NCBI GenBank assembly: GCA_963843795.1
Contig: CAWJLW010000006.1
Location: 3,546,375 to 3,610,374 of the forward strand
Origin: an uncultured bacterium
GTDB taxonomy: Bacteria > Armatimonadota > Abditibacteriia > Abditibacteriales > Abditibacteriaceae
DNA length: 64,000 bases
Reading direction: 5' to 3'
The position numbers and the translations under genes were made by a program. The notes under the pieces are model-generated. The model was not told the DNA's origin and did not search any database. It was given only the letters and a program-made list of their open reading frames with translations. The number at the start of each line of letters is the position of its first letter. Within the stretch, counting starts at the first letter, position 1. Below are positions 775-43,949 of this stretch, piece by piece.

Positions 775-958
775 AATTTTTTGAGTTTGGCGAACTGGCA
801 AGTACTTGCAGGCCATTCCAAAGTGCTGCATATTATTTGGCAGCGATATTTTGAAAACGACGGGAAACGCAGTTTTAAAAAGCAGGTTGCCAGGCCAGTT
901 AAAAAGTAGTTAGAACGCAGGTAAAAAAAGTAGGCAGAAGAGAAGGCAAGAAAGCGCG

Positions 959-1813
959 ATGGCTCAAATTTTCTCACCCAGTTCCAATGTGGTTGCCAAG
1001 CTCAGCATCGTCGGTGCCTTGATGGCAGTGCCGGCGTTGGGTGCTTCCATTTACGGCATCAACATGGTGTATGGCTACAAATACTATGTTCCGGTCGAAC
1101 AACCGGTGCAGTTTTCGCATAAACATCACGTCGGTGATGATGGCATCGACTGCCGCTATTGCCACACTTCAGTCGAAAAATCGTTCAGCGCCGGTATGCC
1201 CTCAACGCATACCTGCATGAGCTGTCACTCGCAAATCTGGTCCGATAGCCCGGAATTGCAAGTGGTGCGCGCTTCGTATGCCAGCGGTCAGCCGCTGCGC
1301 TGGAACCGCGTGCACGACATGCCCGATTTCGTTTATTTCAATCACTCGATTCACATCAAAAAAGGCGTCGGTTGTGAAACCTGTCACGGTCGTGTGGATG
1401 AAAAGCCACTGATGTGGAAATCGCACTCGATGACGATGTCGTGGTGTTTGGATTGCCATCGCCAGCCCGAAAAATATTTGCGTCCACGCGAAGCCGTGTT
1501 TACGATGGGCTACGTGCCCGGAAAAACCACAACCAATGCCGCCGGTTCGATGGCGTTGGAGCCGAGGTCGATCAAAGATACGGTGAGTGGTCGCCAAGCA
1601 GCACTCAAGGGCATCACCTACGAACAATTGCGCGAAGGCGAAGAAAAAGGCGAAGCTGGCGCGAAGGGCGAAGCCGGCGCGAAGGGCGAGGCCGGCGCAC
1701 AAGCCGAAGCGCATGGTGGCATGACGCAGTTGCAAATCGGGCTGGATTTAAAGCGACAATACAAAATCCGCTCAGCGCGCGAACTGACCGATTGCGGCAC
1801 CTGTCACCGTTAA
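959..1813 (+). CDS. actA: Alternative complex III pentaheme cytochrome c subunit
   Basis: N-terminal TM; five CxxCH motifs (CRYCH, CMSCH, CETCH, CLDCH, CGTCH); QPVQFSHKHH and PDFVYFNHSIH. Confidence 0.93.
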   Translation: MAQIFSPSSNVVAKLSIVGALMAVPALGASIYGINMVYGYKYYVPVEQPVQFSHKHHVGDDGIDCRYCHTSVEKSFSAGMPSTHTCMSCHSQIWSDSPELQVVRASYASGQPLRWNRVHDMPDFVYFNHSIHIKKGVGCETCHGRVDEKPLMWKSHSMTMSWCLDCHRQPEKYLRPREAVFTMGYVPGKTTTNAAGSMALEPRSIKDTVSGRQAALKGITYEQLREGEEKGEAGAKGEAGAKGEAGAQAEAHGGMTQLQIGLDLKRQYKIRSARELTDCGTCHR

Positions 1814-1968
1814 AAGGTCAACATCAGAACGCCAGCGCTATTGAAGCGCAAACGTTAAAAGATCACGCAAGCAAAAGATCACGCAAGCACAGGCAAGTAC
1901 TTGCAGCGCACCGGCACGTACTTGCGAGAACAAATACAGTTGGGTTTGTAGGACAGTTAAGGAAAAAG

Positions 1969-4900
1969 ATGTCGAATCCGTTGATTCAAATCCTCGACCG
2001 CACCGGGAAAAACAAGAATGTGCCGCTTGAAAAGGCTTTGGAAGCAGAGGTTTCCGCGCCTCTGGATTTGGCCGCTGTGCGCGCCAAACTGGCGCAGCAA
2101 AATGGCCGCACTTATTGGCGCAGCTTAGAAGAGTTGGCTGGCGACGATGAGTTTAATGGCTTCTTGGAGCGCGAATTCCCGCGTCAGGCACCGCGCGACA
2201 TGGCACCGCTGGCGCGCCGCGACTTTCTCAAGTTGATGGGCGCTTCGCTGGCCCTAGCCGGAGTTTCCGGTTGCGCGTTTCAGCCCGCAGAGCAAATCGT
2301 CGGTTATGTCAAGGCACCCGAAGACATGATTCCCGGCGTGCCACAATTTTACGCGACCGCGATGACGATGGGCGGTTATGCCATCGGCCTTTTGGCCGAA
2401 AGTAACATGGGTCGCCCAACCAAAATCGAAGGCAACCCCAGTCATCCGTCGAGTTTGGGCGCGACTGATATTTTCGCTCAGGCCTCGATTTTGGGTTTAT
2501 ACGATCCGGGTCGTTCCAAAGCCTTGCGCAAACTGCGCGATAACGCGACGTGGGAAGATTTCACCGGCGCTGTACAAGAATTGGCGACTCAGCTTCAAGG
2601 CACTGGAGGTGCCGGTTTTCATCTGTTGACGGAAACCATCACTTCGCCAACACTTGGTAACCAGATCGCGCAATTGAAGGCCGCGTTTCCGCAGATGCAA
2701 TGGCATCAATACGAGCCCAACACGCGCGACGGGGCGCGCGCTGGAACGCAGCAAGCCTTCGGTGTTCCGACGCATCTCGTCTATCATTTCGACCGCGCCG
2801 ACCGCGTTCTTTCTTTGGATTCCAACTTTTTGGGCGATGAGCCGGGTTCGGTCCGTTATGCACGCGATTTCACCGACCGCCGCCGCGCTCGTCAGGGCAC
2901 CAAAAATATCAACCGGATGTATATGGTGGAAAGCACGCCGACTATCACCGGTGCGATGGCCGACCATCGGTTGGCGGTGAGTGGCAGCGCGGTGCAAACC
3001 ATCGCTCAGGCTCTGGCTGCCAAGATTGGTGCGCCCGGCGTGAATGCTCCAGAGGGCTTGAATCAAACGCAGCAGAAATGGGTCGATGCCTGCGCAGCAG
3101 ATTTGAAAACCGCTCAAGGGCGTGCCGTTGTGATCGCGGGTGGTCACCAGAGCGCGGAAGTTCACGTTTTGGCGCACGCTATCAATAGCGCTCTGGGCGC
3201 ATTGAACACCACAGTCACCGGACATGAACCGGTCGAAATCGCGCCGGTCGAAGCCGCTCCGTTTCAACAAGCGCAATCGTTACAATCTCTGGCCCGCGCG
3301 ATTCAAAGCGGTCGTGCCAAAGTGCTTTTGATGTTGGGTGGTAATCCGGCCTTCAGTGCGCCCGCCGATTTGAAATTTGGCGATGTGCTGGAGAAGGCAG
3401 TTCTGCGCAAGGCCAATCCTTTGGTCGCGATTCATCTCAGTACCGACGACAACGAAACTTCGGTGCGTAGCACATGGCACATTCCCGAAACGCACTATCT
3501 GGAAAGCTGGGGCGATGCGCGTGGGCATGACGGCACGGTTTCAATTGTCCAGCCGCTGATTCAGCCCCTGTATCCGCAGGCGCGCAACGCTTATGAAGTG
3601 CTCGGCGCCTTTCAAGTGCCGACAGCGCAGGGGATCGTCGCACAACCCAACGCGCTGCAACCGCAATATAATCCCGATCGCTCGGCGCTGGAGATTGTGC
3701 AGGGCTACTGGCAAAACGCACGCGGCAGTGGCGCAGGCAATACCGCTAACAATGCGGCGACGATGGGCCTTGATGTGACCGCTGGCGATTCGGCTTCGGC
3801 GATCACAGCGTTCCAAAAGCAGTGGCAGACCTGGTTGCACGACGGTGTGGTGCCCAATTCGGCCTCACCGCAACGCACGTTGACTTTCACCGGCAATGTG
3901 GCTGGCTTGGCCGCCCCAAAAACCGGTGGCATGGAAGTGATGTTCCGCCCCGATCCGACAATTTGGGACGGGCGTTTCCTGAACAATGCCTGGCTGCAGG
4001 AATTGCCCAAGCCGCTGATCAAAACCACTTGGGACAATACGGTTTTGCTGCCATTTTCGATGGCGGAAAAATTGGGTGTTACCGACGATGATCTGGTGAA
4101 CGTCAAAGTCGGCGACACTTTCGTGCAGTTGCCAGTGACGATTGCGCCCGGACATCCCGAAAACAGCGTGACTGTGCATTACGGCTATGGCCGCACGCGC
4201 GCCGGTGTGGTCGGAAATGGCACCGGACACGACGTGATGTCGTTGCGCAGCGGGCAAAATATGAACTGGGCGCCGGTCGAAGTTACCAAGGCGGGCGGAC
4301 GTTTCCGCGTGGCGCGCACCGCGCATCACAACATTATCGACAATCGCACCAATAAAATAGACGGTCTGCACGACCGCGAATTGATTCAAAGCGCGACCAT
4401 CGAACAGTTCGCCGCCGATCCGAAAAGCGTGGTTGGCGAAGAAGTCACGACGGCATTGCCGGTTGTGGGCTTGATCCAGCAGGGCAAAATCAATACGGGC
4501 TTGGAACACGAAGCCGGTGGCGATGGAGGCGTCGATGCGGGCGAACACGAGGGCGCAGAGAAAGCTCCCGGATTTCCGTCTTTGTATCCGCAGGGCCGCG
4601 ACTCGGTTTTGAACGATGAAAATATTCCCTATGCGTGGGGAATGTCGATTGACACCAGCACTTGCGTTGGTTGTAACGCGTGCGTGATCGCCTGCCAGTC
4701 GGAAAACAACAGCGCGGTCACCGGCAAAAGCCAGGTGATGATGGGTCGCGAAATGCACTGGTTGCGCATCGACACTTATTATCACGGCGACGTGAGCAAC
4801 CCGGATGTGTATTTTCAGCCGGTGATGTGCATGCACTGCGAAAAAGCGCCGTGCGAGCCAGTGTGTCCGGTTGTGGCAACGCAACACTCACCCGAGGGCA

Positions 4901-5463: not shown

Positions 5464-5632
5464 AATACCGTGCAAGTACTTGCAGCGCAGAATTGATGTT
5501 CAAACATCTGTTGCAAGTACTTGCAAGCCACAATTGGAATGTAAATAAAGCCGCAATATTCGTAGAAAAGTGTTGAAAGGGAAGTTCCCGACCGCGAGCT
5601 GCAAACTCGTGGTGCGATGAGGAAAAGCAAGC

Positions 5633-7885: not shown

Positions 7886-8815
7886 ATGAAGCGAATTTCT
7901 TTGATGACACCTAACTTTTTAATGCCGCGCTACGGGAAAAATCCGCGCAAAAGTTCGCTGCAAGTACTTGCAGTCGCCTTGTTGGGCGCGACGCTGCTGC
8001 CCGGTTGTGCGCGCGACTACACGTTCTCGCCTGTCGATATGTGGAATCGCTCGCGTTTAAAGCCCTACGAACCGGTCAACTTTTTTGATAATAACCTGTC
8101 GTCGCGTCCTTTACCCGCAGGCACGGTAGCGCGCGGAAACTTGCAAACCGACGACGCGATGTTTCGCGGCGTGCGTAACGAGCGCTTCGTAACCGAAATT
8201 CCGGCTGCGATTCGCGCCAAGTTCTCGCAGAAAGAATTGGAGCAGCGCGGCCAAGAACGTTACAACATTTATTGTACGATGTGTCATGGTGCAGCCGGAC
8301 ACGGAGACGGCATGGTCGTGCAGCGCGGTTTTTCGCCGCCGCCCGATTATCGCATCGCGCGTTTGCGCCAAGCTCCGGTCGGCCATTTCTTCAACGTCAT
8401 TACTCACGGTTATGGCGCGATGTATTCGTATTCGACGCGTGTGCCGGTGCAAGATCGCTGGGCGATTGCCGCTTATATTCGCAGCTTGCAACGAGTGCAG
8501 CCCGAAGTTGTGGAAGATGTTCGCTACAAAAATAATGCGCGCCAGAATGGTATGAATGGTAGTGGTATGAACGGTAGCGGTATGAATGGTAGCGGCATGG
8601 GCGGTAGCGGCATGATGGACGAGCAGGGCGGGACATCGGCAGCGCCGCAAAATACTGGCAGCGAAGTTGGCGCGGGCGAGAGTCTGGGTTCGACCGAAAC
8701 CGGTGGCAGCGCGTCGCAATCGCGGACGGGTCAGCAAGTACCCGGATCAAAAAATCCGATGCAAGCCGTGCCGCCACTTGGAACCGGAGTCACCGAAGGT
8801 TTACGAGGGCGCTAA
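7886..8815 (+). CDS. actE: Alternative complex III ActE monoheme cytochrome c lipoprotein
   Basis: Lipobox LLPGC, PAGTVARG, CTMCH, DRWAIAAYIRSLQ; low-complexity tail with GMNGS repeats. Confidence 0.9.
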   Translation: MKRISLMTPNFLMPRYGKNPRKSSLQVLAVALLGATLLPGCARDYTFSPVDMWNRSRLKPYEPVNFFDNNLSSRPLPAGTVARGNLQTDDAMFRGVRNERFVTEIPAAIRAKFSQKELEQRGQERYNIYCTMCHGAAGHGDGMVVQRGFSPPPDYRIARLRQAPVGHFFNVITHGYGAMYSYSTRVPVQDRWAIAAYIRSLQRVQPEVVEDVRYKNNARQNGMNGSGMNGSGMNGSGMGGSGMMDEQGGTSAAPQNTGSEVGAGESLGSTETGGSASQSRTGQQVPGSKNPMQAVPPLGTGVTEGLRGR

Positions 8816-8952
8816 AGCAGTTGCATTTTTAACACCGCATGGCCAAGACGCGTTGGATGACGCTTCTGGCAAACAATGTCGCAACGAAGTTTCGCAGCCG
8901 CGAGCGGCAAATACTTGCAGCCTGTGAACGCGAAATGCAGGACAGAATTTGT

Positions 8953-10233
8953 ATGAACAGCATTGATTTAATTCGTCCCCAACTCAACCGCATTCAAAGC
9001 TTAGCGATGCCGATCGGTATCGTGGGCCTGATTTTGACCGTCATCGGCTTTTTCATTAGCCCCGCGACGTTCTTTCCGGTTTATCTGGTTGCCTTCATGT
9101 TGTGGTTCGGCGTCACGCTCGGCTCAATCGCGTGGCTTCTGATTCACCATGTAGCGGGCAGCGGCGCGTTCTTCCTGATTCGACGTTTGCTCGAAGCGGG
9201 TGCGCGCAACTTGCCGATGATGGCCATTTTGTTCGTGCCCATCGCCCTCACCACAATCGTGCCGAGCCTGCACTTTTATCCGTGGACCGATGCTGCGCAC
9301 GTCGCGGGCGATCACGTCTTGGAATTCAAAAGCCCTTATCTGAACGTGCCGTTCTGGTTGATGCGTGCCGTGTTTTATTTCGCGGTATGGTTCGTGACAC
9401 TGGTATTGTTGCTGAACTGGGGCAAGAAGCAGGCTGAGGGCGATTTGAGCGCGACGCACAAATTGTCGATGTGGGGCGCTGTGGGCTTGTTGATGTACGT
9501 CTTCACCGTGACTTTCGCGGCGTTCGACTGGGTGATGTCGCTGACTCCGCACTGGTTTTCTTCGCTTTTTGGCGTGATCTTTATCGTCGGGCAAGGTTTG
9601 TCGACTTTGTGCTTGATGCACGTCATGATTACCAAGTTGACTGAGGGAACCGCACTCACTGATTTCGTGCCCCAGCGTTATTTTCGCGACCTGGGCAACA
9701 TGACGCTCGCGTTCACATTGCTGTGGGCGTATACCAATTTTTCGCAGTATGTAATTATCTGGTCGGGCAACATCGGCGAGGAAGCTTCTTGGTATGTTCC
9801 GCGCATTCAAACCAACTGGGTGATTATCGGTGGCTTTTTGATCGCCTGCCATTTCGCCCTGCCGTTTTTGACGCTGCTTTCGTCGAGTGTGAAAGTGCGC
9901 ATTCAAAATCTGGCCAAGCTGGCGTTGTGGATTCTCTTGATGCGCTACATCGACATGAACTTTTATATCACGGCGACTTTTGCGCCCAACTTGTTCGGTA
10001 ACGCGATTCCGGGTTACACGCCAGTGAGTCCGCAATTGGGATCGGCGAACTGGCTGGCTGGCATCGGTTCGATGCTCGGCATGGGCGGTTTGTGGATGTG
10101 GGCCTGGGCGCGCAATTTGAAACAAAGCCCCGATTTATTGGCCGCTGGCGATCCGCGTTTCGTGGGTCAATATGAATTGCCCGAATCGGCGACGGATGAG
10201 CCGTCCAATCAAGGAGTTGTCGCACATGGCTGA
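8953..10233 (+). CDS. actF: Alternative complex III ActF membrane subunit
   Basis: Multi-TM; K-x-x-YLNVPFW, DWVMSLTPHWFSSLFG, DLGN...WAYTNFSQYVIIWSGNIGEE. Confidence 0.88.
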   Translation: MNSIDLIRPQLNRIQSLAMPIGIVGLILTVIGFFISPATFFPVYLVAFMLWFGVTLGSIAWLLIHHVAGSGAFFLIRRLLEAGARNLPMMAILFVPIALTTIVPSLHFYPWTDAAHVAGDHVLEFKSPYLNVPFWLMRAVFYFAVWFVTLVLLLNWGKKQAEGDLSATHKLSMWGAVGLLMYVFTVTFAAFDWVMSLTPHWFSSLFGVIFIVGQGLSTLCLMHVMITKLTEGTALTDFVPQRYFRDLGNMTLAFTLLWAYTNFSQYVIIWSGNIGEEASWYVPRIQTNWVIIGGFLIACHFALPFLTLLSSSVKVRIQNLAKLALWILLMRYIDMNFYITATFAPNLFGNAIPGYTPVSPQLGSANWLAGIGSMLGMGGLWMWAWARNLKQSPDLLAAGDPRFVGQYELPESATDEPSNQGVVAHG

Positions 10234-10825
10234 TATGATTCCTCAAGGCACGCAAGCCGAATCGGTGCCTTTCGGTCACGAGACTGCCGATGCCAATGTT
10301 AAATCGGTGTTTGTTTCGGTAGTTGTGTTGTTATCTTCGGTTGCTGTTGTGATGTTGGCGATGCTGGGAATGTTCAACTATCTCAACCATCGCGAAATGG
10401 CCAAGGATGCCAATGTGCCCGCGACTTTCGCGGTGCGCCAATTGCCGCCCGGCCCGCCGCTTTTGCCGTCGCCGCAAAAGGATATGCTGCCGTGGGCCGC
10501 GTATGCCGAAGAACGCGGAGCGCAGGAAGCGAGTGCGGCCAAGGCTGGGATTATCGATCCCGAAAGCGGTTATTATAAAGCTCCTGATAGCACAGCCAAG
10601 GGCGAAGCTGTGGTGGCAGAAACCCGCGATTATTTTCAAAAGAAATACGAGTGGGATTCTTCGCAAGGTCGTTACACTTACGATACGACGGGCGGAATTG
10701 GCTTGAAATCTTCCAATGAGCGCTTTGGTACTAATGGTTCGGAAGCGCCCGAAGCCATGTCGCCAAGCGAAAATTTGGTGCCCGAAGACCGCCGCGAAAT
10801 TGGAACCGAGCAGATCAAACACTGA
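10226..10825 (+). CDS. Single-TM protein, probable ActG-like small subunit
   Basis: GHETADAN then one TM helix and a Pro-rich segment; sits between actF and sco. Confidence 0.55.
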   Translation: MADMIPQGTQAESVPFGHETADANVKSVFVSVVVLLSSVAVVMLAMLGMFNYLNHREMAKDANVPATFAVRQLPPGPPLLPSPQKDMLPWAAYAEERGAQEASAAKAGIIDPESGYYKAPDSTAKGEAVVAETRDYFQKKYEWDSSQGRYTYDTTGGIGLKSSNERFGTNGSEAPEAMSPSENLVPEDRREIGTEQIKH

Positions 10826-10931
10826 AAATCGAAAGAGTCAACCGAGCCGCTAGTTTTGCAACGTGTTGTTAAAGCGCAGTGCAATAACGAAAAGTTGGAA
10901 ACGGCAGAAGGTTCTGCCGGTCGGAGAAGTC

Positions 10932-11885
10932 ATGAATATCAAAATGCTGGCTCGGAAATTGTCGCTGGCGCTGTTAATTGGCGCTGCAAGTACTTGCGGC
11001 GCGACGAGTGGCATCGCGCAGGCTCAGGGCAGTCAGGCTTTAGCGCCGCAAGTCGATTTGGGTGCCAGTGCTTCGGCGGCCAACTCGCTGCAAACGCCGC
11101 AGGATAAAGTGATTTCGCAAGTCAAGTGGGATCAAAAACTGGGCACGCGAATTTCGCCCGATTTGAAATTTCGTGATGAAACCGGAAACGACGTACAGAT
11201 CGGTCAGTACTTCAAAGACAAGCCGGTCGTAATGATGCTGGTCTTTTACGATTGCACCATGTTGTGCTCGGAAGTGATGAACGGTTCACTGCGCTTGTTT
11301 CAAGACGAGCAAAAAGCCTTGGGCTTTGAAATTGGGCGCGACTTCGATGTGATCACAGTGAGCATCAATCCCGACGAAGGTCCGGAGCTAGCTGCTGTAA
11401 AAAAGAAAGCTTATCTGGCACAGCTGCCGGTTGCCAAGCGTGCCGATGCCGCTCAAGGCTGGCACTTACTAACCGGGCAGACGCCGCAAATTAAAGCGCT
11501 GGCCGATTCGATTGGCTATCGCTATACCTATGATGCGAACACCGACACTTACGCGCATCCGGGTGGGCTGGTCGTTACGACGCCGCAGGGCAAAGTTTCG
11601 AGCTACTTTTATGGCATCGACTTTCCCGAAAAAGACGTGCGCTATGGGCTGATCGAAGCCTCGCACAACAAAATTGGTTCGCCCTTAGAGCGCGTGGCGT
11701 TGTTCACCTGCTTTCACTACAACCCCGAAAAGGGCACGTACGCGGTGGGCGTAATGAAGGTATTACGCTTGGCGGGACTGATGACAGTGTTGGGTATGGC
11801 GTTTGGCATCACTTTGATGAAACGTTTCGAAGGGCGCGCTCGTATGCGTGGCGAAGAAAATCGGTCGAATAGCACGACTGTTTGA
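10932..11885 (+). CDS. SCO1/SenC family copper chaperone
   Basis: Signal peptide, CTMLC (CxxxC), WHLLTG, YAHP, C-terminal TM; precedes coxB. Confidence 0.9.
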   Translation: MNIKMLARKLSLALLIGAASTCGATSGIAQAQGSQALAPQVDLGASASAANSLQTPQDKVISQVKWDQKLGTRISPDLKFRDETGNDVQIGQYFKDKPVVMMLVFYDCTMLCSEVMNGSLRLFQDEQKALGFEIGRDFDVITVSINPDEGPELAAVKKKAYLAQLPVAKRADAAQGWHLLTGQTPQIKALADSIGYRYTYDANTDTYAHPGGLVVTTPQGKVSSYFYGIDFPEKDVRYGLIEASHNKIGSPLERVALFTCFHYNPEKGTYAVGVMKVLRLAGLMTVLGMAFGITLMKRFEGRARMRGEENRSNSTTV

Positions 11886-11987
11886 GTGGATGCAAGTACT
11901 TGCAGCGCGAATGTTTGATTTGTGAAGCGGCGTGTAAGTGCGTGCAGAAAAATTGACGAAGTTTGGAAGTTGAGACGGGAACGAACT

Positions 11988-13382
11988 ATGGGTTCATTGT
12001 GGCCAAGTCTGCCTTTTATATTGCCGCAGGCATCGACCAATGCGCGCGGCGTGGACGATGTTTTCATCGTATTGACGCTGCTCGCGGTTTTCTTTTCAGT
12101 GGGCATCTTCGGCGTCATCGCGTTTTTCGCGGTGCGCTATCGGCGCGGCAATCGCGTCAATCGCGTCTTGCCCGAACATGAGGGCATCGCCTTGGAATTG
12201 ACGTGGACGATTATCCCGCTCATCATTCTTGTAGTGATGTTCGTGTGGTCGACCAGCGTTTACTTTGCTCAACTCCGTGTGCCCAAGGGCGCGATGGAAG
12301 TGATGGTCGTGGGCAAGCAGTGGATGTGGAAGCTCCAGCAGCCCAATGGGCGCTGGGAGATGAACGAACTTCATGTGCCTACAGGAAAGCCCGTCAAGCT
12401 GACCATGATTTCCGAGGATGTAATTCACGATTTCGGCGTTCCCGCTTTTCGTTTGAAAATGGATGTGGTGCCCGGTCGTTACACACAGGCGTGGTTCCAA
12501 TCGGACCGTCCGGGTCGCTATCGGTTGTTTTGTTCGCAGTATTGCGGAACCAAACACTCGATTATGGGCGGCTTTATCACGGTGATGGAACCCGCTGATT
12601 ACCAGCGCTGGCTTTCAACCGGCAATGTGGCGACTTCTTCCTCTGCCGAGGGCGAAGCCTTGTTCCGTCAGCTGGGCTGTACCGGTTGTCACGGTGATAA
12701 CGCCAATGTGCGTGCGCCGAGCTTGGTCGGCTTGTGGAATCAGCCGCGTCCGGTCCAGGTCCGTCAGGCCGATGGCACTTATGTAAACGAGGTTATCAAA
12801 GCCGATTACCGTTATATTCACGACTCGATTGTGCTCCCCGAAAAAGAAGTAGCGGCGGGCTACAAACCGATTATGCCAACCTATCGCGGCCAGATCAGCG
12901 AAGAACAAATCGCGCAGCTGACCGATTACATTCGTTCGCTGGGCACCAGTAATGGCACCAGCAACGGTGCGGCCAAAACCTACATTCCGGAAAACGCGAA
13001 CGGTTTGGATGCTCAAGCAGGCGTGGCGTCTGCCAATCCGAACGAAAACATGGGCCGTATGCCGGATCGGGATCGCGTGTTTCAAGCGGGCAACACCGGA
13101 ACGCGTGCTGCGGATCAGGCGAATTCCAATCTGGGACGAATGCCAGATCGTGACCGCGTGTATGGCGCAAACGATGGCGGACGCCAGTTAGATAGCGGAT
13201 TGCGTTCGGGTTATACGGGTAATCGTCCCGATAGCGTTGGAGCACCGCGCAACATTCCACCGCAGGATGCGCCCAACGTTTATGCGGGCACTCGAGAAAA
13301 TGTCGCCGGTCGCGCCAATCCGCAACCGCAGCGTGGCAGTTCGAGCACGCCTCAGTTGGATCGTTCAACCGCTGGACGCTAG
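11988..13382 (+). CDS. coxB: Cytochrome c oxidase subunit II, caa3 type (fused cytochrome c) with long C-terminal extension
   Basis: LELTWTIIP, QWMW, DVIHDF, CSQYCGTKHSIM CuA ligands, CTGCH heme motif. Confidence 0.95.
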   Translation: MGSLWPSLPFILPQASTNARGVDDVFIVLTLLAVFFSVGIFGVIAFFAVRYRRGNRVNRVLPEHEGIALELTWTIIPLIILVVMFVWSTSVYFAQLRVPKGAMEVMVVGKQWMWKLQQPNGRWEMNELHVPTGKPVKLTMISEDVIHDFGVPAFRLKMDVVPGRYTQAWFQSDRPGRYRLFCSQYCGTKHSIMGGFITVMEPADYQRWLSTGNVATSSSAEGEALFRQLGCTGCHGDNANVRAPSLVGLWNQPRPVQVRQADGTYVNEVIKADYRYIHDSIVLPEKEVAAGYKPIMPTYRGQISEEQIAQLTDYIRSLGTSNGTSNGAAKTYIPENANGLDAQAGVASANPNENMGRMPDRDRVFQAGNTGTRAADQANSNLGRMPDRDRVYGANDGGRQLDSGLRSGYTGNRPDSVGAPRNIPPQDAPNVYAGTRENVAGRANPQPQRGSSSTPQLDRSTAGR

Positions 13383-30549: not shown

Positions 30550-31422
30550 ATGAGAGATCATCAACAATCGGGCTGGTTGAAATTCTTAGAAGCGCAAAAT
30601 CACACTCGTCTTTTGCTTTTTAGCTACATCTATACACTGTTTGTGGGCTATATCAGCGATATCCTCGGCTACGAAATTTCGCTCACTATTTTCTACCTAC
30701 CACCAATTTATATTGTGTCTTACTTTGTCGGTCGCACGCGCGCCCTGTGGCTGGCTTTGTTTGCAGGCGCGATGTGGATGGCCGCCGACATAGGTTCGGG
30801 GCACGTTTACAGTTCCGCTTATTTGCCTTACTGGAATGCTGGCACGCGGCTGGTGTTATTCGTGGTGGTGGCGCTTTTGTTTGCGGCGTTGCGCGCTTCG
30901 TTCGAGCACGAAAAGCTGCTGGCGCGCCGCGATTTCCTCACCGGCGCGTCCAACGCGCGCGCCTTTTACGAAATGGCCGAGATGGAAATTACGCGCCTGC
31001 GCCGTTATCGTCATCCTTTCACCATCGTGCATTTGGATGTCGATAATTTCAAAACGGTCAACGACACGCGGGGCCATCAGGCCGGTGACGATTTGTTGTG
31101 TTTGATCGTGCAAACCGTGCGCGCGAGCTTGCGCGACATCGATATCGTGGCGCGCCTGGGCGGCGACGAGTTCGCCCTACTGCTGCCCGAAACCGGCGCT
31201 GAGGCCGCACCGATTGTCGTGCAAAAAATTAAAGCGCATCTCATGTCAGAAATGTGCCGAGGCGCGTGGCCAGTGTCTTTCAGCATTGGCGTTCTGGTTT
31301 GCCAGGAAGCTCCCGAATCGATGGATAAGATGCTTAAGTTGGCCGATGATCTTACCTACGAGGCCAAACGCGCTGGTAAAAATACCGTTAAATATGGCGT
31401 TGTGCCAGTTCCTCAGAATTAA
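30550..31422 (+). CDS. Membrane-bound diguanylate cyclase
   Basis: N-terminal TMs; DFLTG, DVDNFKTVND, GHQAGD, RLGGDEF. Confidence 0.93.
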   Translation: MRDHQQSGWLKFLEAQNHTRLLLFSYIYTLFVGYISDILGYEISLTIFYLPPIYIVSYFVGRTRALWLALFAGAMWMAADIGSGHVYSSAYLPYWNAGTRLVLFVVVALLFAALRASFEHEKLLARRDFLTGASNARAFYEMAEMEITRLRRYRHPFTIVHLDVDNFKTVNDTRGHQAGDDLLCLIVQTVRASLRDIDIVARLGGDEFALLLPETGAEAAPIVVQKIKAHLMSEMCRGAWPVSFSIGVLVCQEAPESMDKMLKLADDLTYEAKRAGKNTVKYGVVPVPQN

Positions 31423-31545
31423 GCGGCGCTGCAAGTACTTGCCAAGTGCTTAGCAAGTGCTTGGCAAGTCGTCGCGCAAGTACTTGCAGGGGGCAAACCT
31501 ACTGCGAAATCGGCACTTAGCGAGCGGAACGTTAAAATAAAGCCA

Positions 31546-32628: not shown

Positions 32629-32720
32629 GTGTTGGAAAGTCGCAATGGAAATTTAAAAGGTGGAACGGGCGCTGCAAGTACTTGCAGCACCCGTTACGCC
32701 ACTTCAAATAAACTGCGCGC

Positions 32721-34804
32721 GTGTCCACACGTTCTCCAATTCGCTCTCAACCAACAACCTCCCGCTTCCTTTCCGCCTGCGCTTTCGATTCGCTTTTTGA
32801 ATTGATGGCGTTCGCCGTTTTGCTGCTGATGTGCGCGGTTGCGCCCTGGGAATTGTCCGGTTTTTGGCCCGTCACGCGCGATTATTTTCCGCAATCGATC
32901 GCCTTGTGCGCGGCAGCCTTCGCCGCGCTGATGCTGGCACTTGCGCCTTCCGATTATAAGGCGCAATTTTCGCCGCTGGGGTGGTGCCTCGTCGGTTTCC
33001 TCGTGTGCAATTTGCTGGCACTGGTTACAGCGGTTTATCAGCACGATGCGCGGCTCGAATTGGCACGACTGGCGGGTGTTCTGGCGTGGTTTTTTATCGC
33101 GCGCCGCTTGCTTGCTTTGCCGGAAAATGAGCGCGTTTTCGCGCGCGCGACCTTGGTTGTGATTGGCGCTTGTCATCGGCGCGCTGGCGGTTTGCGGATT
33201 GGCGATTTTAGAATTCGCTCAAACGCGCGCCAATCAGATTTCCACTTTCTACAACGCCAACTTGTTCGCCAATTACGCGGCGCTGGCGCTGCCCTTGTGT
33301 TTGTGCGCCGCGTTTTGTTTGCGGCGCTTGCTATCTCACGGCCTAGCCGTTGGAATCGGCGTTATTGCCACGCTCATTTGCGCGGGTGGCGCTTTGATTT
33401 CGGGCTCCAAGGGCGGTTTTCTGGCCGCCTTTGTCGGCACTTTGATTTTCCTATTGTCGATTTGGCGCGCGCGCGGCGCGCAGATGAAAAGCGGCGCGCG
33501 CCGTCACGCCAAAGTGCTGGGCGCCAGCACAATTTTGTTTTTAATTGTGGGTGGCGCGCTGTTTGTGAAAACCGTCGGGCCGCGTTTGCAGCGCGCGGGC
33601 GGCAGCGAAAACCATTCGACGATGTTTCGCGTTTACGCGTGGAAATCGACCGTCGACATGCTCCAAGCGCGACCACTTCTCGGTCACGGGCCGGGCAGTT
33701 TTCCTTCGGTGTATACGCAATTTGCGCAGGCCGGCTACACGCGCTCGGCGCACCAATCGTGGTTGCAAATCGCAGGAGAAAGCGGGGTGCCGAGTCTGCT
33801 GTTCCTCATCGGCGCGTTCGCTCTGGCATTGAGAAGGGGCGTGCGACAATTGAAAACATCGCGCTGGCCAATTGCGGCGGGCGCGCTGGGCGCGTTGAGC
33901 GCGATGATCGTGCACGGCTTTATCGACGCCGGTTGGGGCATTTTTTCGATTGCGCTGGCCGTCGCCGTGATTCTGGCGCTGTTGGATGAATCGGAAATGC
34001 AGGAAAACCAAAAGGTCGGACGCTTGAACGTGGCTTGGCTGTTGGTAATATTGCCCTTAGCGCTGGGCGCATCGTATGGAATGCAGGCACAGAGCGCGGA
34101 GAATTTGAGTTTTGGGTCCGAGGAATTGTTGCGTCAGGGCAATCGCATTGGGGCGCTCAATGCCGCGCAGGCTGCGACGCAAAGCGCGCCGCTCGATGCG
34201 CGCGCGTGGGCGAATTTGGGGCAAATGCGGATTCAAAACGGTGACCGCGACGGCGCGATTGCGGCCTATCGCCAAGCTCACGATCTGCAGCCGACCAAGG
34301 CCAGCCACGTTCTGCGCTTGGCGCAATTGTTGGATAGCGGCGGCGCGGAAAACATGGCCGAAGATTGGTACAATCGCGCGATTGAACTTGATCCGCGCGA
34401 CATCGGTTTGCGCATTCAACGCGCGCAGTGGCTGGAAAAACAAGGGCGCAACTGAAGAAGCGCTGAAAGACTATCAGCGCGTGGTCGAATCGGCGCATGA
34501 GCCGTATGGGCGTTATCCGGCGATTCCCGAAATCGTCGATCTCAATTATAATCGTGCGCGTTTTAAAGTCATCGAAAATGCCTTGCAAACACAGAAATTG
34601 GACGAAGCGCGCCAGTTGATTGCCGATGGTCGCGGCGATTTAGAGCGCGCGCGTAATTTTCTGCGTGATCAGCCCGATATGGCGCGTGCGGTCGAAGAAA
34701 GTGGACAACCGCTGGCCTCGGAAAGCGACATTAATGAGCAAGAACAACGATTTGATGAGCAAGAACAACGATTTGATGAACTGCAAAAGCGTTTGCAAAA
34801 ATAA
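32721..34804 (+). CDS. O-antigen ligase family protein with TPR repeats; two frameshifts (~33160, ~34450)
   Basis: STFYNANLFA, SGSKGG, RPLLGHGPGSF, AHQSWLQIAGESG, TPR-like helices. Confidence 0.8.
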
Positions 34805-34836
34805 TCTGCAAAAACTCGATTCCGCAAAATTTCATT

Positions 34837-35286
34837 ATGAAAACCATCTGCATTTTTCACGGCCCGAATTTGAACCTGTTGGGCCAACGCGAACCTGGCA
34901 TTTACGGAAATACCACACTCGCCGACATTGAAAACGCGCTGCAAGTACTGGCAGCAGAGCTTGGCGTCGAAATTCAGTGCGCGCAATTCAATGGCGAAGG
35001 CGATTTGATTAGTGCGCTGCACGCGACCTTGGATGAAGAAAACATCGGCGGTGTAGTATTGAACGCCGGCGCGTGGACGCATTACTCGTATGCCCTGCGC
35101 GATGCGATTGCGGCGATTACCGTTCCTGTTGTCGAAGTGCATTTGTCGAATACGGCCAAGCGCGAAAGTTGGCGTCATCACAGCGTGATTAGTGCAGTGT
35201 GCACGGGCACGATTTTAGGTTTCGGGCCGCTTTCGTATCAGTTGGGATTGCGCGCCATCGTGCAAGTACCTGCGGAGGCCCATTGA
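34837..35286 (+). CDS. aroQ: Type II 3-dehydroquinate dehydratase
   Basis: HGPNLNLLGQREPGIYG, NAGAWTHYS, EVHLSN. Confidence 0.96.
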   Translation: MKTICIFHGPNLNLLGQREPGIYGNTTLADIENALQVLAAELGVEIQCAQFNGEGDLISALHATLDEENIGGVVLNAGAWTHYSYALRDAIAAITVPVVEVHLSNTAKRESWRHHSVISAVCTGTILGFGPLSYQLGLRAIVQVPAEAH

Positions 35287-35495
35287 AGGCTGCAGGGGAC
35301 TTGCAGCCATAGGCAGCACCTTGGAGATGCACAAATCGGCACAGTTGTTAAAATAAGCTCGCACTTCGCACAGATTTTCATAAAGGGCCACATTTTCGGG
35401 TGGCGAAAGTTGAAGACGGAAAGTGAAGTCATCGCAATGGCGACACGTTTGAAATGGGAAACGCAGCGGTTGCGATGAACCTTGGAGGCAGTGAA

Positions 35496-36686
35496 ATGGC
35501 AAAAAAACAGTTTTATTTTTCTTCGGAATCGGTGACCGAAGGCCATCCCGACAAAATGGCCGACCAGATTTCTGACGCCGTGCTCGATGCGATCATCAAA
35601 GACGATCCGCGCGCGCGCGTCGCCTGCGAAACCTTTCTCGCGACCGGTCTGGTTCTGGTCGGTGGCGAAATCACCACCGACACTTATGTCGAAATCCCCA
35701 ACGTCGTGCGCGGCGTCATCAAAGACATCGGTTATTCGCGCGCCAAATTCGGCTTCGATTACCTGACCGCGGGCGTCTTGACTTCGATTGGCAAGCAATC
35801 GCCCGACATCGCCCAAGGCGTCAATACCGCTGAGGAAACGCGCGTCGAGGGTTCGCACGACGATTACGATAAAGTCGGCGCGGGCGATCAGGGCATGATG
35901 TTCGGCTACGCCTGCGACGACACGCCGCAATTGATGCCGCTGCCGATTCAGATGGCGCACAAACTGGCCAAGCGTTTGGCCGAAGTGCGCAAAAACGGCA
36001 CGCTGCTATATTTGCGTCCCGATGGCAAAACCCAAGTCACCGTGCGCTACGAAGATGACAAGCCGGTCGCCATCGACAAAGTGTTGATTTCGACCCAACA
36101 TCGCCCCGACGTCAAGCAGGAAGAAATTCGTCGCGACTTGATCGAACACGTCATTCAACCCGCCTTGGGCGATTGGTATCACGACAAAATCGAAATTTTC
36201 GTCAACCCGACCGGTCGTTTCGTGATCGGCGGCCCGCAGGGCGATGCCGGTTTGACCGGACGCAAAATTATCGTCGATACTTATGGCGGCATGGGCCGTC
36301 ACGGCGGCGGCGCGTTTTCGGGCAAAGACCCGACAAAAGTCGACCGCTCGGCAGCGTATATGATGCGCCACGTGGCGAAAAATATCGTCGCCTCGGGCGT
36401 GGCCTCGCGCTGCGAAACTCAGGTCGCTTATGCGATTGGCAAAGCGCATCCCTTGTCGGTTTACGTGAATACCTTTGGCACCGGACAAGTCGAGGACGAA
36501 AAAATCGCGCAAGCGGTGAAAGAAACCTTTGACTTGCGTCCGGGCGCGATTATCAAGCATCTCGATTTGCTGCGTCCGATTTATCGCAAAACCGCCGCTT
36601 ATGGTCACTTTGGTCGCGAAGACGCCGATTTCACTTGGGAGAACACCGGCCACGCCGAAACCCTCAAAGCCAAATTGAGCGTGTAA
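35496..36686 (+). CDS. metK: S-adenosylmethionine synthetase
   Basis: [34 protein letters not shown]. Confidence 0.98.
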
Positions 36687-36999
36687 AATTTCGTAAAAAT
36701 GCTCTGCAATTACTTGCAGAAAGCCAAAAAAGAGATTCTCGTATTTGCGGGAATCTCTTTTTTGTGAAAATCGCACCACACTTTGGTGCGCTAGTGGTCA
36801 GAAATCGGCGCAAACAGCAACCCAAGCGCAAGCGTACGCAGAATTGCCACTGGACATGCCACTGGACTTGCACCCGTGGGCGCGCGCGGTGAAAATAAAC
36901 GCATCCCATTGGAAAACAGCCATAACGAGAAAGTGATTTAGCAAGAATTAAGAGACGAATAAAAAAAATGTTTCAAGCAGATTTGCGAGGAGGCAGATT

Positions 37000-38409
37000 T
37001 TGGCAAACGAATATCCCACAGACAACGCATCCGCGGTGGCGCCGACCGGCGATACCGGCGCGCACGACCGGGCGCGCTTGAATTCCGATTACTGGCTACA
37101 ACATCGCGACAAATTGTTTATCGCCAGTTGTATGGCGCTTATCGTGACGGCGATGTCGTTCGCGATTCGCGGCGACACGATGGGCGATGTCGGCACGCAC
37201 TTTAATTTCACCAAGGAAGACTTAGGAAAAATTGGCGGCATCGCGTTTTTGGGCTTCACGCTGGCGATGGTCGGCGGTGGCCCGTTGTGCGACGTCGTCG
37301 GCATGGGACGTTTGCTGATGCTGGCCGTTTTGGGACACGCTGGCGGCATTATTCTCTCGATTGTGGCGCAGAATTACACGATGTTCTTCGCGGGCACCTT
37401 GTTGATCGGTTTGGGCAATGGTCTGGTCGAAGCGGCCTGTAACCCTTTAATTGCCACGCTTTATCCCGATCAAAAAATAAAACGCTTAAACCTGTTCCAT
37501 ATGTGGTTTCCCGGCGGCATCGTGATCGGTGGCTTGGTGTCGTATGCGATTACGCAAGCCGGAATCAGTCCAAGCATTAGCTGGCAAGTGAAGCTGGGGA
37601 CCATGCTGCTGCCCCTCGCGATTTACGCCTTTTTGTTTGTCGGCAAAAAATTCCCGCAAACCGAGCGCGTGGCCTCCAATGTCTCGACCGGCGAAATGTT
37701 CAAGAAGTGTCTTAGCCCGTTGTTTTTGTTGTTTGTGGTTTGCATGTTGATGACCGCAGCGACCGAACTGGTGACCGGCCAATGGTTGCCCGATATTTTG
37801 ACCGTCACGACCGGCATTTCCGGCATTTTGTTCTTGGTGCTCATCAACGGCTTGATGGCGATTGGTCGCGGTTCGGCGGGCGCTCTGGTGCATCGCTTGT
37901 CTCCGATTGCGATTTTGATCACGTCTTCGGTTTTCTCGGCCCTGGGCTTGTTCCTGCTGACGCGCGCCAATAACGCGGGCAGCGGCTTTATCGGCGCGAT
38001 TATTTTCGCGATCGGTGTGTGTTTCTACTGGCCGACGATGTTGGGCGTGGTGTCCGAACGCTTCCCCAAAACCGGAGCGTTGGGACTAGCGATTATGGGC
38101 GGAGCCGGCAACCTGTCGGTTGCAGCCTTTATGCCCTTTGTGGGCAAGGTGTACGATGAGGGCATCGCCAACGCTGCCGGTGGTGCCGATAAATTGACCG
38201 CCCTGCAAAACGGTGGCGAAGCGACCAAGACCGCTTTGACGCACGCGCAAGCCGCTGGCGGTCAAGCGGCTCTCAGCTCCCTGCTGGCGCTTCCCGTGAT
38301 TCTGGCGATCGTTTTCACCGCGATGTATTTGTATGACAAGGCGCGCGGCGGCTATCAGGAAGAAGTTCTGGTGCAGCACCACAACGTCGCCGAAGAAGTT
38401 TCCGCGTAA
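37000..38409 (+). CDS. MFS transporter (sugar permease-like)
   Basis: About 12 TM; GNGLVEAACNPL, WFPGGIVIG, WPTMLG; TTG start after GAGGAGG. Confidence 0.88.
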   Translation: MANEYPTDNASAVAPTGDTGAHDRARLNSDYWLQHRDKLFIASCMALIVTAMSFAIRGDTMGDVGTHFNFTKEDLGKIGGIAFLGFTLAMVGGGPLCDVVGMGRLLMLAVLGHAGGIILSIVAQNYTMFFAGTLLIGLGNGLVEAACNPLIATLYPDQKIKRLNLFHMWFPGGIVIGGLVSYAITQAGISPSISWQVKLGTMLLPLAIYAFLFVGKKFPQTERVASNVSTGEMFKKCLSPLFLLFVVCMLMTAATELVTGQWLPDILTVTTGISGILFLVLINGLMAIGRGSAGALVHRLSPIAILITSSVFSALGLFLLTRANNAGSGFIGAIIFAIGVCFYWPTMLGVVSERFPKTGALGLAIMGGAGNLSVAAFMPFVGKVYDEGIANAAGGADKLTALQNGGEATKTALTHAQAAGGQAALSSLLALPVILAIVFTAMYLYDKARGGYQEEVLVQHHNVAEEVSA

Positions 38410-38479
38410 ATTCAAGTCCCAAAAAGCGCCCGCCAGCACTTGCTACAAGTGCGGCGGGCCTTTTCCATTTTCTATACCC

Positions 38480-38957
38480 ATGCAAGGCGAAATCGTTCAA
38501 ATCAGCGTGAATCCGCGCGGTGGCGTGCCGAAGCTGCGAGTTGCAAGCGCGCATTTGGGAACCGAAGGCGTTGAGGGCGATAAACAGCGCGACCGCCGTT
38601 TTCATGGCGGCCCCGAACGCGCGGTGTGTTTGTATGCACTCGAAATGATTGAAGCCTTGCAAGGCGAAGGTCATCCGATTGATTGCGGCACGACGGGCGA
38701 AAACCTGACGATTCGCGGCTTGGATTGGAGCCAAATCCAACCCGGAACGCGTTTGCAAATCGGCGAAGATATCGAGTTGGAAATCGCATCTTATACCGCG
38801 CCCTGCAAAAATATCGCGGCCTCGTTTATCGATGGCGAATTCATGCGCATTTCGCAGAAAAAACACGCTGGGCAAAGCCGATTGTATGCGCGCGTCTTGC
38901 GCGAAGGAACCGCGCATGAAGGGCGATACCGTTTGTGTTGTGGACGTTCAAAACTGA
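38480..38957 (+). CDS. MOSC domain protein (YiiM-like); probable extra G near 38921
   Basis: GGVPK, HGGPERAVC, GENL, PC motif, YARVLREG. Confidence 0.85.
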
Positions 38958-38964
38958 AAATTTG

Positions 38965-39006
38965 GACCAAAACCGTGCTGCAAGTACTTGCAGCACGGTT
39001 TTGGTC
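38965..39006. repeat. Perfect 42-bp palindrome centred on the iterated motif
   Basis: gaccaaaaccgtgctgcaagtacttgcagcacggttttggtc. Confidence 0.92.
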
Positions 39007-39392
39007 TTGGCAAGCGTAAGACTATCCTTTATATTGAAGATAATCTAGACAACCCTAAATTCGTTGAGCGTGCGCTGTCGCTGAAAAATTATCGGATTAA
39101 GTTTCTGGCAGCCATGCAAGGCAGTAGCGGTCTGGAGATGGCAGCGCAGAACAAGCCGGACGTGATTCTGCTAGATATTCACCTGCCAGACATCACGGGC
39201 GATGTTGTATTGAGACAATTACAAGCTAACGATGCAACGCGGGCCATTCCAGTTATTGTGTTAAGCGCCGATGCTACCCCTAGCCAAATAGCTCGCTTGC
39301 GCGCAGAGGGAGCAACGGATTATTTGACCAAGCCTTTGAACCTGAAGAAACTGTATCAAACCTTGGAGCAAGTGTTAAAAAGGTATCAATAA
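39007..39392 (+). pseudogene. Orphan response-regulator receiver domain without a convincing start
   Basis: ILYIEDN, PDVILLDIHLPD, LSADA, YLTKP; no ATG or RBS before the domain. Confidence 0.7.
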
Positions 39393-40110
39393 AAGATGCA
39401 CTCAGAAATACTTTAACTTATTTTCCACCAAACTGAGTAAATGCAAATGCAGATCCTGATGGCTTTTAATATTTCTCGGTCTCAACGCAGCAATTTGTGC
39501 CCAACGCAGCAATTCATTTTCACGTATTACTTTCACGCATTACTTTCACGTCGTAGCGTGCCAGTTCTTCATCGTAGAAATGTGCTTGCTGGGAAAATAT
39601 GTGTGCCGTTTTGCCGAGTTTCCTTTCCAATTGATTGGAAATGAGCGTATATGAGTTCAGCGCCCTCATACAAGGTCACTCTTTTGGACTGACTTTGCCA
39701 ATAAAAACGAAGCAAGCCAAAAAGCTCCGTGAGAATCAGCAATCTTTTGTGATTCTATTTTTATATCGATGAGCTGCTGCTCACCTGTTGCTTACCGGGT
39801 CTGGAGTAGGGAAGCGCGTTCGATTGAATTTTCGCAGCATTCTGAGCAAAAGCAAATAGCGATGGTTGGTTTGGTGAAGCATCATGCTGACTTTTTGGGA
39901 TGGACAAAAGATGCGTGTCCAGGAACGCCGTTGAACCGTAGTGACCACCTTTTGAGGAAGATCCGAAGACTTTCGATGCCAGTGGTATCATTGTTTGCGT
40001 CGAGCCCAGGCCAAACTCAAACCCATCAAACTGCTCGGAGTTTGGAAAGCCAAAGGGCACAAGACGATGCTGACGATGCTGTTGTAGAGCAATTTCGATA
40101 CGGAGCAAAT

Positions 40111-40356
40111 ATGACTAAAACGATTCAAATTAGTGAAGAAGAAGCTCGGGCGTTGGTTTCTATTCTGCAAGCGGTCACCGTAGAGCTTGGAAAGGTGCGC
40201 CATGAGTTGCGTGCAACCGGGCATGACAAAATGGTTTTGTGCAGCGATGAGTTCTCAGAACAACTGCATGAGTTAACGACGTTACTCGAAGGTAATTTAT
40301 ACAAAGCGCGACTAGCGCCGATGCTGCCCGAATTCGATGCCAATAATTTAAATTGA
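40111..40356 (+). CDS. Small hypothetical protein
   Basis: ATG after GGAG, 81 aa, helical composition. Confidence 0.4.
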   Translation: MTKTIQISEEEARALVSILQAVTVELGKVRHELRATGHDKMVLCSDEFSEQLHELTTLLEGNLYKARLAPMLPEFDANNLN

Positions 40357-40441
40357 GTCTCGCGCAACATTAATAATAAATAAGCGCCTTACGAGTACTT
40401 GCAGGGCGCTTATCTGCTCCTTCCTCACCAGTTCGGACTTC

Positions 40442-43428: not shown

Positions 43429-43508
43429 TTTCTCACCTGTGTCTCTATGATAAGTCAAGCGCAAGTGAAATTCAATATTTATGCATTAAAAAGGTAATTC
43501 AAATGAAC

Positions 43509-43536
43509 TTGACCTGTGATGCAAGAATGATAAAAT
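43509..43536 (+). promoter_or_regulatory. Sigma70-type promoter divergent from the Xre gene
   Basis: TTGACC-N16-TAAAAT with TGn extension; hairpin cacgccggatg/catccggcgtg follows at 43557-43584. Confidence 0.55.
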
Positions 43537-43639
43537 ATAAAGCGTAGAAACGCGAACACGCCGGATGCGGGAACATCCGGCGTGGCTACGGGAAGTAGCA
43601 GCAAACATTCTACAAAAATCAATTTAGCGGGAAGTAGAG

Positions 43640-43949
43640 ATGATTCACTGCGAAGCAGTTATCGTGCCCGATGGGTACGATTCAAACTGTCACAACGGAT
43701 GAAGTCGAATTTGCTAGCGCATTTTATGAAGTCGCTTTGCGAGACGGCTACGAAGTCGATGCGCAAGTACTTGCCGATGGCACCCATCAAATCACATTTG
43801 GCGGCGAAGATAACGATGTGGCCGCACTACTTCAAGCGGCTTACACGCTCGAAAATGAACGTTTTGAGGCTATGTATGCCCGCGAACAAGAGCGGCTGCA
43901 GTACTTGCGGGTGCCGTATGAGCTGTCAAGCGATCCAAGCAGTTTTTAA
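43640..43949 (+). CDS. Small acidic hypothetical protein (start 43640 with one indel, or 43671)
   Basis: ORF 43671..43949; upstream ATG joins it if one G is removed. Confidence 0.45.

Follow-up and report, generated by a model that had tools for sequence, protein, structure and literature searches.

A palindromic word in the window and across the genome

The window, by which we mean the whole 64-kb stretch of DNA analyzed here, is the end of contig C6 (CAWJLW010000006.1, positions 3,546,375 to 3,610,374) of an uncultured bacterium of the Abditibacteriaceae, whose genome is designated G000. It was found to contain 23 exact copies of the 12-letter palindrome GCAAGTACTTGC between positions 798 and 43774, where 100 dinucleotide shuffles gave an expectation of 0.00, and 39 sites with up to two mismatches, where 2.9 were expected. 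A preliminary description, made from the letters alone, had reported an iterated palindrome with at least 23 exact copies in about 44 kb; our count agreed, and every variant position named there was recovered in the two-mismatch scan. Seven of the 23 exact copies were located inside called genes (gene positions in G000 follow our own calls of 3,408 genes), and the word-free part of the window served as an internal negative control.

The same word was the commonest 12-mer of the G000 genome (4.30 Mb, 11 contigs, 92% complete). We counted 2,567 copies, where a fifth-order Markov model of the masked genome predicted about 7, an excess of about 350-fold within and between genes; the 14-mer TGCAAGTACTTGCA and the 16-mer CTGCAAGTACTTGCAG occurred 1,290 and 879 times, respectively. 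Rather than being confined to this locus, the word was spread over nearly the whole length of the 3.6-Mb contig C6 at 25-43 copies per 50 kb, with no trend along the GC-skew curve. Islands of 25-33 kb, among them the GC-rich tail at 52-64 kb of the window, were down to 0-1 copies. Each of 60 relatives contained only 0-3 copies, which supported the earlier reading of a genome-wide, lineage-specific mark. The 16-mer was also sought in 15 of 64 parts of a GTDB-wide scan; it occurred there in 36 stretches with one site each, and no other rich genome was seen in those parts. Logan contigs of public DNA runs spanned the copies at 17810 (runs X1 and X2) and 19251 (run X1) with the 12-mer unchanged; because run X1 may be the source sample, this speaks against an assembly artefact and does not represent an independent strain. 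The motif had not been recognized as a member of a known family, and we obtained the same result: the Rfam scan of the window matched only a tRNA, and the open-access literature searched contained no description of GCAAGTACTTGC or of restriction enzymes with signal peptides.

Table 1. Copies of the word and word-free region in the window (positions counted from the first letter of the window)
Feature	Position	Strand	Context
Exact copy	798..809	.	Spacer ubiA-actA, without extended hairpin
Exact copy	1893..1904	.	Spacer actA-actB; one-mismatch copy at 1914, 21 bp further
Two exact copies, 41 bp apart (about 4 helical turns)	5472..5524	.	Spacer past actB
Exact copy in cytochrome c gene, reads QVLA	7960..7971	.	
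Exact copy in SCO-like gene, reads ASTC	10986..10997	.	
Exact copy	11892..11903	.	Spacer preceding coxII
Exact copy	13464..13475	.	Spacer coxII-coxI
Exact copy	16646..16657	.	Tip of 17-bp hairpin between convergent genes (-32.9 kcal/mol, z -7.2); predicted, likely two-way terminator
Exact copy in Ser/Thr kinase gene (ASTC)	17810..17821	.	Spanned by short-read contigs
Exact copy	18538..18549	.	Terminator-like hairpin tip past proS
Exact copy in proS (QVLA)	19251..19262	.	Aligned position in G001 (same genus) carries that genome's word CAAAGTACTTTG
Exact copy	21597..21608	.	Divergent spacer
Exact copy	24112..24123	.	Spacer accD-accA
Exact copy	25529..25540	.	Terminator-like hairpin tip past accA
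Exact copy	26465..26476	.	Hairpin tip, DUF1206 gene / tRNA-Leu, convergent
Exact copy in queG (QVLA)	27416..27427	.	
Exact copy	27716..27727	.	Spacer 5' of called queG start
Two exact copies, 45 bp apart	31431..31487	.	Two-mismatch copy at 31453
Exact copy	32674..32685	.	Inverted-repeat context past corA
Exact copy	38980..38991	.	3' end of MOSC gene; 22-bp hairpin tip
Last exact copy	43763..43774	.	Within short doubtful open reading frame
Decayed or variant copies at 8907, 20310, 22233, 23113, 23124, 25360, 34941, 35262, 36706, 38432 and 40391	8907..40402	.	
Word-free stretch	43775..64000	.	O-antigen/ABC cluster (GC 0.46-0.54), then dsbD/two-component island (GC 0.60-0.67)

The 2,563 non-overlapping copies in G000 comprised 1,801 intergenic copies, 750 coding copies (29%) in all three frames, and 12 at gene edges. 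The word had been described as occupying most intergenic spacers; the occupied share was closer to one half, with copies in 66% of the 418 convergent spacers, 51% of the 2,157 tandem ones and 54% of the 438 divergent ones. Spacers longer than 40 bp contained about 0.6 copies each, almost independently of their length. The mean gap between copies was 1,578 bp (about one per 1.6 kb), and the coefficient of variation of the gaps was 0.82, compared with 1.19 ± 0.02 for a class-matched null, indicating that the spacing was more even than chance. Gene interiors contained 0.31-0.39 copies per kb when neither flank had a copy and 0.09-0.19 when both did; this compensation was reached in none of 2,000 permutations, and three control words showed no such drop.

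All 12 positions of GCAAGTACTTGC were constrained. Single-mismatch variants were few and mostly transitions, with the commonest at position 4 (127 sites), and the end bias typical of the highly iterated palindromes (HIPs) was not found. A stem extended by at least six pairs was seen in 66% of copies in convergent spacers and in only 2% of coding copies; the former have A/T tails and form strong predicted hairpins whose loop contains GUAC. The left and right arms of coding copies did not covary in two frames; in the third frame, covariation was slightly in excess at the first three positions. Taken together with the rarity of extended stems, this suggests that duplex DNA is probably the form in which the common signal is read, and that the terminator-like hairpins are probably a co-option of the word. 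Divergent spacers without hairpins showed A+T peaks at +8/9, +19 and +30 bp, a recurrence of about 10.5 bp, and the distances between neighboring copies had the same 10.5-bp period (194 pairs).

The word has also rewritten proteins. The tetrapeptide QVLA occurred 566 times in G000 proteins against about 40 expected, 502 of these being spelled CAAGTACTT, and ASTC occurred 131 times against 4 expected. When 84 coding sites were aligned to their orthologues, 63 had no nearby gap and 21 had one (background about 10%); local identity was 37% versus 58%, revealing that the copies lie at poorly conserved residues. Of 33 alignments with AGTACT-rich relatives, 4 shared the GTAC core with the orthologue; of 51 with others, none did. 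The alignments indicate that coding copies arose mostly by substitution. The flanks were diverse, with 2,060 distinct 24-mers among the 2,563 copies.

Other features of the window were also observed. An alternative complex III and aa3-type oxidase cluster (959-16596) was syntenic in G007, G009, G012 and G014, and a DDE transposase gene (41018-42136) bordered the O-antigen cluster close to where the word ends. The tail of the contig (52000-64000; GC 0.60-0.67), with dsbD, an L,D-transpeptidase gene, a two-component pair and no copies of the word, gave weak matches to alphaproteobacterial plasmids; it is either an island or a chimeric contig end, and reads over 44-64 kb were sparse.

Dialects, methyltransferase and nuclease in the family

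Seven of 27 family genomes had their own word with a GTAC core, and 12 others were nearly purged of GTAC. The hexamer AGTACT was hyper-abundant in G001, G009, G012, G015 and G019 (2,813-4,733 copies) and nearly absent (1-33 copies) in 13 of 26 family genomes; among the word-rich genomes, G001, G015 and G019 were 63-89% complete. The dialect of G001 was CAAAGTACTTTG, with 1,231 copies genome-wide and 11 in G000, while sampled regions revealed WTCGAGTACTCGAW in G009, G015 and G019 and (C)GAGTACTC(G) in G012. G006 used the asymmetric word GTACRGTCGAATT (1,005 copies), which occurred singly on either strand or in inverted terminator-like pairs and was evenly divided between strands (495 versus 510 genome-wide; 11 versus 10 single copies in the listed part of its contig C2). 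Metagenome contigs added AAAAGTACTTTT (7 loci), GGAGTACTCC, TGAGTACTCA and the asymmetric AAAAGTACGCC. The preliminary description had pointed to both AGTACT and GTAC within the core; since G006 and contig L202 use asymmetric GTAC words, GTAC, rather than AGTACT, appears to be the relevant core. In a GyrA tree, the five word-bearing g6 genomes grouped apart from G000, so there are probably two word-bearing clades.

Several observations on genomes without the word stand by themselves. A different repeated word, CAGCCACG / ACACCAGCCACGTCC, was present in G007 (L089-L091) and G016 (L106-L107) and is probably REP-like (repetitive extragenic palindromic). Contig L290 (G024:C98) contained 9 of the 18 AGTACT sites of a GTAC-purged genome and was likely mis-binned or transferred from a word-bearing relative. 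In the family samples, strong depletion (0.03-0.18) also affected CTAG, both in the word-less genomes with a methylase and in G002 and G016; it was weaker (about 0.4) in G010, G021 and G023.

As the preliminary description had stated, no cognate gene was visible in the window. We found one N6/N4 (DPPY, beta-class) methyltransferase of orphan type elsewhere in G000, at C6:2517365-2518135, and no C5 methylase in that genome. Orthologues with 56-75% identity were present in 22 of 27 family genomes, two of them interrupted or partial, in varied housekeeping contexts; they were present in all 7 word-rich genomes, and a search of 34 other genomes of the phylum found none. A PD-(D/E)xK-type protein was encoded by the convergent neighbor of the methyltransferase gene in G017, in G020 and in 14 of 80 metagenome loci, and three of four such proteins matched the PADLOC profile REase_II PDLC03460 (E 1e-11 to 3e-8). 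The motif, the methylase neighbor and the profile match characterize this partner as a putative type II restriction endonuclease. Its structure model had a pLDDT of 91; a Foldseek search with the model returned nothing at E<=0.001, with only weak EcoRV/HincII/MvaI rows, and a PDB sequence search gave no match.

The distribution of the nuclease was in sharp contrast to that of the word. It was present in 13 of 27 genomes, all of which had the methylase and lacked the word; the ratio of GTACGC to CGCATG was 0.005-0.04 in 11 of these and 0.14 and 0.24 in the other two. The ratio was 0.21-0.45 in the seven word-rich genomes and 0.04-0.64 in the five genomes without the methylase, and no intact nuclease was found in either group. 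An intact nuclease was thus found in 0 of 7 word-rich genomes versus 13 of 15 word-less methylase carriers (Fisher p 2e-4, kinship ignored). A decayed nuclease remnant adjoined the methyltransferase gene in G015, and neither tblastn nor a six-frame HMM search found a remote homologue in G000. The conserved methyltransferase and a partner nuclease mutually exclusive with the word lend support to the earlier guess of a methyltransferase-linked process or biased uptake.

A basic-hydrophobic leader resembling a Sec-type signal peptide was present in 10 of 13 family nucleases and in 85 of 117 top homologues, as called by our script's own hydrophobicity rule rather than by SignalP. Judging from these leaders, the proteins are possibly periplasmic restriction enzymes. 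They belong to a large unannotated type II restriction-enzyme-like family in Abditibacteria and Verrucomicrobia (P0207-P0311), with examples at L336:1246-2115 (G017), L337:1396-2139 (G003) and L339:114-899 (G005); look-alike clusters occurred in giant viruses.

Other candidate partners and readers were considered. A HARE-HTH + Mrr nuclease gene was located directly 5' of the methylase gene in three GTAC-purged genomes (L054:576-1373, L056:2276-3070 and L058:1029-1901); as a general partner it was rejected, being beside the methylase only in G005, G014 and G025 and in 0 of 80 metagenome loci. The methylase itself was rejected as the reader of the dialect, as the methylase of G020 was the closest to that of G000 (75%) and yet G020 lacks the word. 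A search for a PabI-type GTAC glycosylase gave 0 of 27 genomes, and its controls were silent as well.

Mobile DNA was also compared. A module of YdjM, RemA, AAA and OEP genes was located on contigs with ParA, ParB and DUF3854. In the homologous plasmid-type metagenome contigs L209, L233 and L243, the methylase gene lay within this module (AAA ATPase, OEP, YdjM fusion, RemA-like), accompanied by 37 AGTACT sites in 8.7 kb where 0.3 were expected. The arms of these sites matched the words of G000, G001, G012 and A4, with those of G006 and L202 included, and L233 had one exact GCAAGTACTTGC; mimicry of several hosts and a single loose dialect seem evenly balanced as explanations. Plasmid-type contigs in the purged hosts G022 and G020 contained no GTAC in 57 kb (50 expected). 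Six viral contigs contained the 16-mer, one copy each; searches of viral contigs also gave two distant methylases and no homologue of the module.

Candidate functions of the word

DNA uptake sequences and uptake signal sequences (DUS/USS) of Neisseriaceae and Pasteurellaceae are 10-14 bp long and occur in thousands of copies, with a spacing of about 1.5 kb (PMC3630211, PMC2397512, PMC2817400, PMC7811141). About one third fall within genes, where the encoded residues are poorly conserved; they are lacking from foreign DNA, and species dialects surround a constant core, with use as terminators and AT-rich flanks; the neisserial DUS has 1,892 copies, 34.5% in open reading frames (PMC2817400), at a spacing of about 1,500 nt (PMC2397512). 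GCAAGTACTTGC matched the neisserial DUS in number, share in genes and spacing (2,567 copies, 29% in open reading frames, mean gap 1,578 bp); it was likewise scarce in foreign DNA and had dialects around a constant core, and the G006 word resembled a DUS in its use of either strand and of inverted terminator-like pairs. Of the competence genes, ComEC was present in 27 of 27 family genomes, word-less relatives included, and G000 also had ComEA, DprA and pilin-like genes. Unlike DUS/USS, the words were mostly perfect palindromes, their core was a likely methylase target and the host belonged to the Armatimonadota; no ComP-like receptor was singled out, and their role in uptake is putative. The roughly 50 DUF1559-like prepilin genes of G000 and a minor-pilin cluster at C6:390.9-396.2 kb are a possible place for a receptor.

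HIP1 (GCGATCGC) and the alternate cyanobacterial HIPs are likewise iterated palindromes with a probable orphan-methylase site, about one per kb, within and between genes and with alternate words in some lineages (PMC4390886, PMC5861425, PMC13756078, 10.1101/2024.09.10.611283). GCAAGTACTTGC is neither GCGATCGC nor a described alternate HIP, and its host is not a cyanobacterium but a member of the Abditibacteriaceae, homologues of its genes bearing the names A. utsteinense and Abditibacteriaceae bacterium. It is longer (12-16 bp) and contains A and T, its mismatches are not end-biased, and the word differs between species of one genus, whereas HIP1 is phylum-wide; sister lineages here purge the core and keep the partner nuclease. 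HIP1 methylation raises transformation (10.1101/2024.09.10.611283), and in Campylobacter jejuni the orphan m6A methylase CtsM marks RAATTY for methyl-dependent DNA uptake (PMC10046745). As described there, the CtsM tag is a bare 6-bp site, in contrast to a long species-specific word around a 4-bp, putatively methylated core. The word was also distinct from non-palindromic Chi and KOPS sites with replication strand bias, being a palindrome, or asymmetric without bias in G006, and from matS/parS/SlmA-type sites, which number tens in one region. It appears to work like a DUS or HIP and belongs to neither named family; it is selected or driven, and the papers searched do not describe it.

We consider the chances about even that GCAAGTACTTGC is a GTAC-built, likely methylated, species-specific self-tag that biases uptake or recombination of the cell's own DNA and is spread by transformation. 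This proposal takes in the observed abundance, even spacing, origin by substitution, rewritten proteins, absence from foreign islands, dialects and gene distributions. The methyltransferase and the PD-(D/E)xK nuclease would once have been a GTAC restriction-modification pair: a number of loci have the two genes as convergent neighbors, and GTAC has been purged from genomes that retain the nuclease. Most family members would have kept an exported nuclease copy that cuts unmethylated GTAC in incoming DNA, by which GTAC would have been driven out. Lineages that lost the nuclease and kept the methylase would have gained a reader preferring GTAC with 4-6 bp arms, so that entry or recombination would have favored word-bearing DNA, up to a density of about one site per transferred fragment. 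Changes of the reader would have produced the dialects, and the palindromes would afterwards have been co-opted as intrinsic terminator tips. That a single 4-bp site is purged in some sister lineages and enriched in others, in association with an apparently exported nuclease, would point to selection on DNA crossing the envelope, and we infer that transformation drive would explain a change of dialect at about 2,500 sites inside one genus.

A wider form of the proposal, which we hold only tentatively, is that one GTAC restriction-modification pair gave rise to two opposite gates for DNA entry: an exported enzyme that destroys incoming DNA lacking methylation and has purged GTAC from its hosts, and, in lineages without that nuclease, a methyl-dependent dialect password that may constitute a third independent uptake-sequence system, counterfeited by plasmids through a methylase and the words of several hosts.

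The following observations weigh against the self-tag proposal. The GTAC target of the methyltransferase is putative, deduced from purging, and there are exceptions among genomes and loci. G004 and G007 have the methylase but no nuclease, and no AGTACT word either; G016 is purged of GTAC (ratio 0.04) in the absence of both enzymes; contig L193 combines an intact cytoplasmic nuclease with a word. Among 40 methylase-bearing metagenome loci of at least 7 kb, GTAC was one of the 5 rarest of the 16 palindromic 4-mers in 25 loci and one of the 3 commonest in 9. Kinship shrinks the pattern of enzymes and word to few events, and the genome pattern is based on only about 2-3 independent clades. G027, with no methylase ortholog, had only 25 AGTACT sites, and spacer occupancy was not correlated between dialects (G009 7/5/6/7, G012 9/7/7/9). 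L209, L233 and L243 are homologous and therefore not independent, and their mixed arms could stem from one unsampled host with a loose word. The 59 prepilin-like open reading frames of G000 contained no clear receptor candidate, and ComEC, found throughout the family, showed no acceleration when set against GyrA; an acceleration seen in a quick tree disappeared in that comparison. Finally, a dimeric chromosomal protein would account equally well for the palindromy and the helical phasing.

Such a protein, organizing the nucleoid or its topology by bending or wrapping about 80 bp and needed every 1-2 kb, with methylation only modulating, is an unlikely alternative, in favor of which are the perfect palindrome constrained at all 12 positions, the AT-rich flanks and neighbor distances phased at about 10.5 bp (194 pairs), the even spacing in which genes compensate for empty spacers, and the scant arm covariation of coding copies. 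The same role has been proposed for HIP1 (PMC5861425). However, a switch of about 2,500 sites within one genus (G000 versus G001) would be hard without drive, 20 of 27 relatives lack such a word, and the idea predicts neither the exclusion with an apparently exported nuclease nor plasmids with several dialects. GyrA was single-copy and unremarkable, and its comparison gave no support to the word as a gyrase site.

A methyl-directed repair or recombination signal, whether Elhai-type strand discrimination or Chi-like, that multiplies by biased repair to about one per kb appears rather improbable. Under Elhai's model (PMC4390886), an orphan methylase is expected and the sites saturate close to 1 per kb; MutL was present in 5 of 5 genomes tested, and the even spacing is consistent with it. 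Nevertheless, that ratchet fixes one flanking base rather than arms of 4-6 bp that differ between species, mismatches were not concentrated at the word ends, the asymmetric G006 word lacked strand bias, and Vsr was not found in G000, G009 or G012.

We regard as very unlikely a self-mark for an intracellular defence that attacks DNA without regularly spaced methylated sites. The methylase comes from a restriction-modification lineage, plasmids carry methylase and dense sites, and newly gained islands lack the word; yet word-poor islands of 25-33 kb persist in the assembly, only the six viral contigs contained the 16-mer, in single copies, and no effector was identified. Least probable are mobile repeats of the REP/BIME (bacterial interspersed mosaic element) or MITE (miniature inverted-repeat transposable element) kind or plain terminator hairpins, which share palindromy, terminator-like hairpins, the intergenic location of 70% of copies and the stems extended in convergent spacers, and which are largely refuted by the 750 genic copies in three frames that arose mostly without indels, the diverse flanks, the near-absence of extended stems in coding copies, and the finding of one weak Y1 transposase fragment with no word array beside it, rather than a conserved 20-40 bp intergenic unit with a flanking REP-associated tyrosine transposase.

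Implications for the family

To our knowledge, only two bacterial families have an established sequence-specific uptake system, and for three decades HIP1 has been without a mechanism. Here, one family displays three states of a single 4-bp site (purged, relaxed, and hyper-iterated with dialects), and because these states track named genes, the origin of highly iterated palindromes becomes testable. The described species A. utsteinense encodes both the methyltransferase and the nuclease, making methylome and cleavage tests feasible. The restriction-enzyme-like family with signal-peptide-like leaders is of interest in its own right. In practical terms, the words serve as species barcodes in binning, and they probably matter for transforming this lineage.

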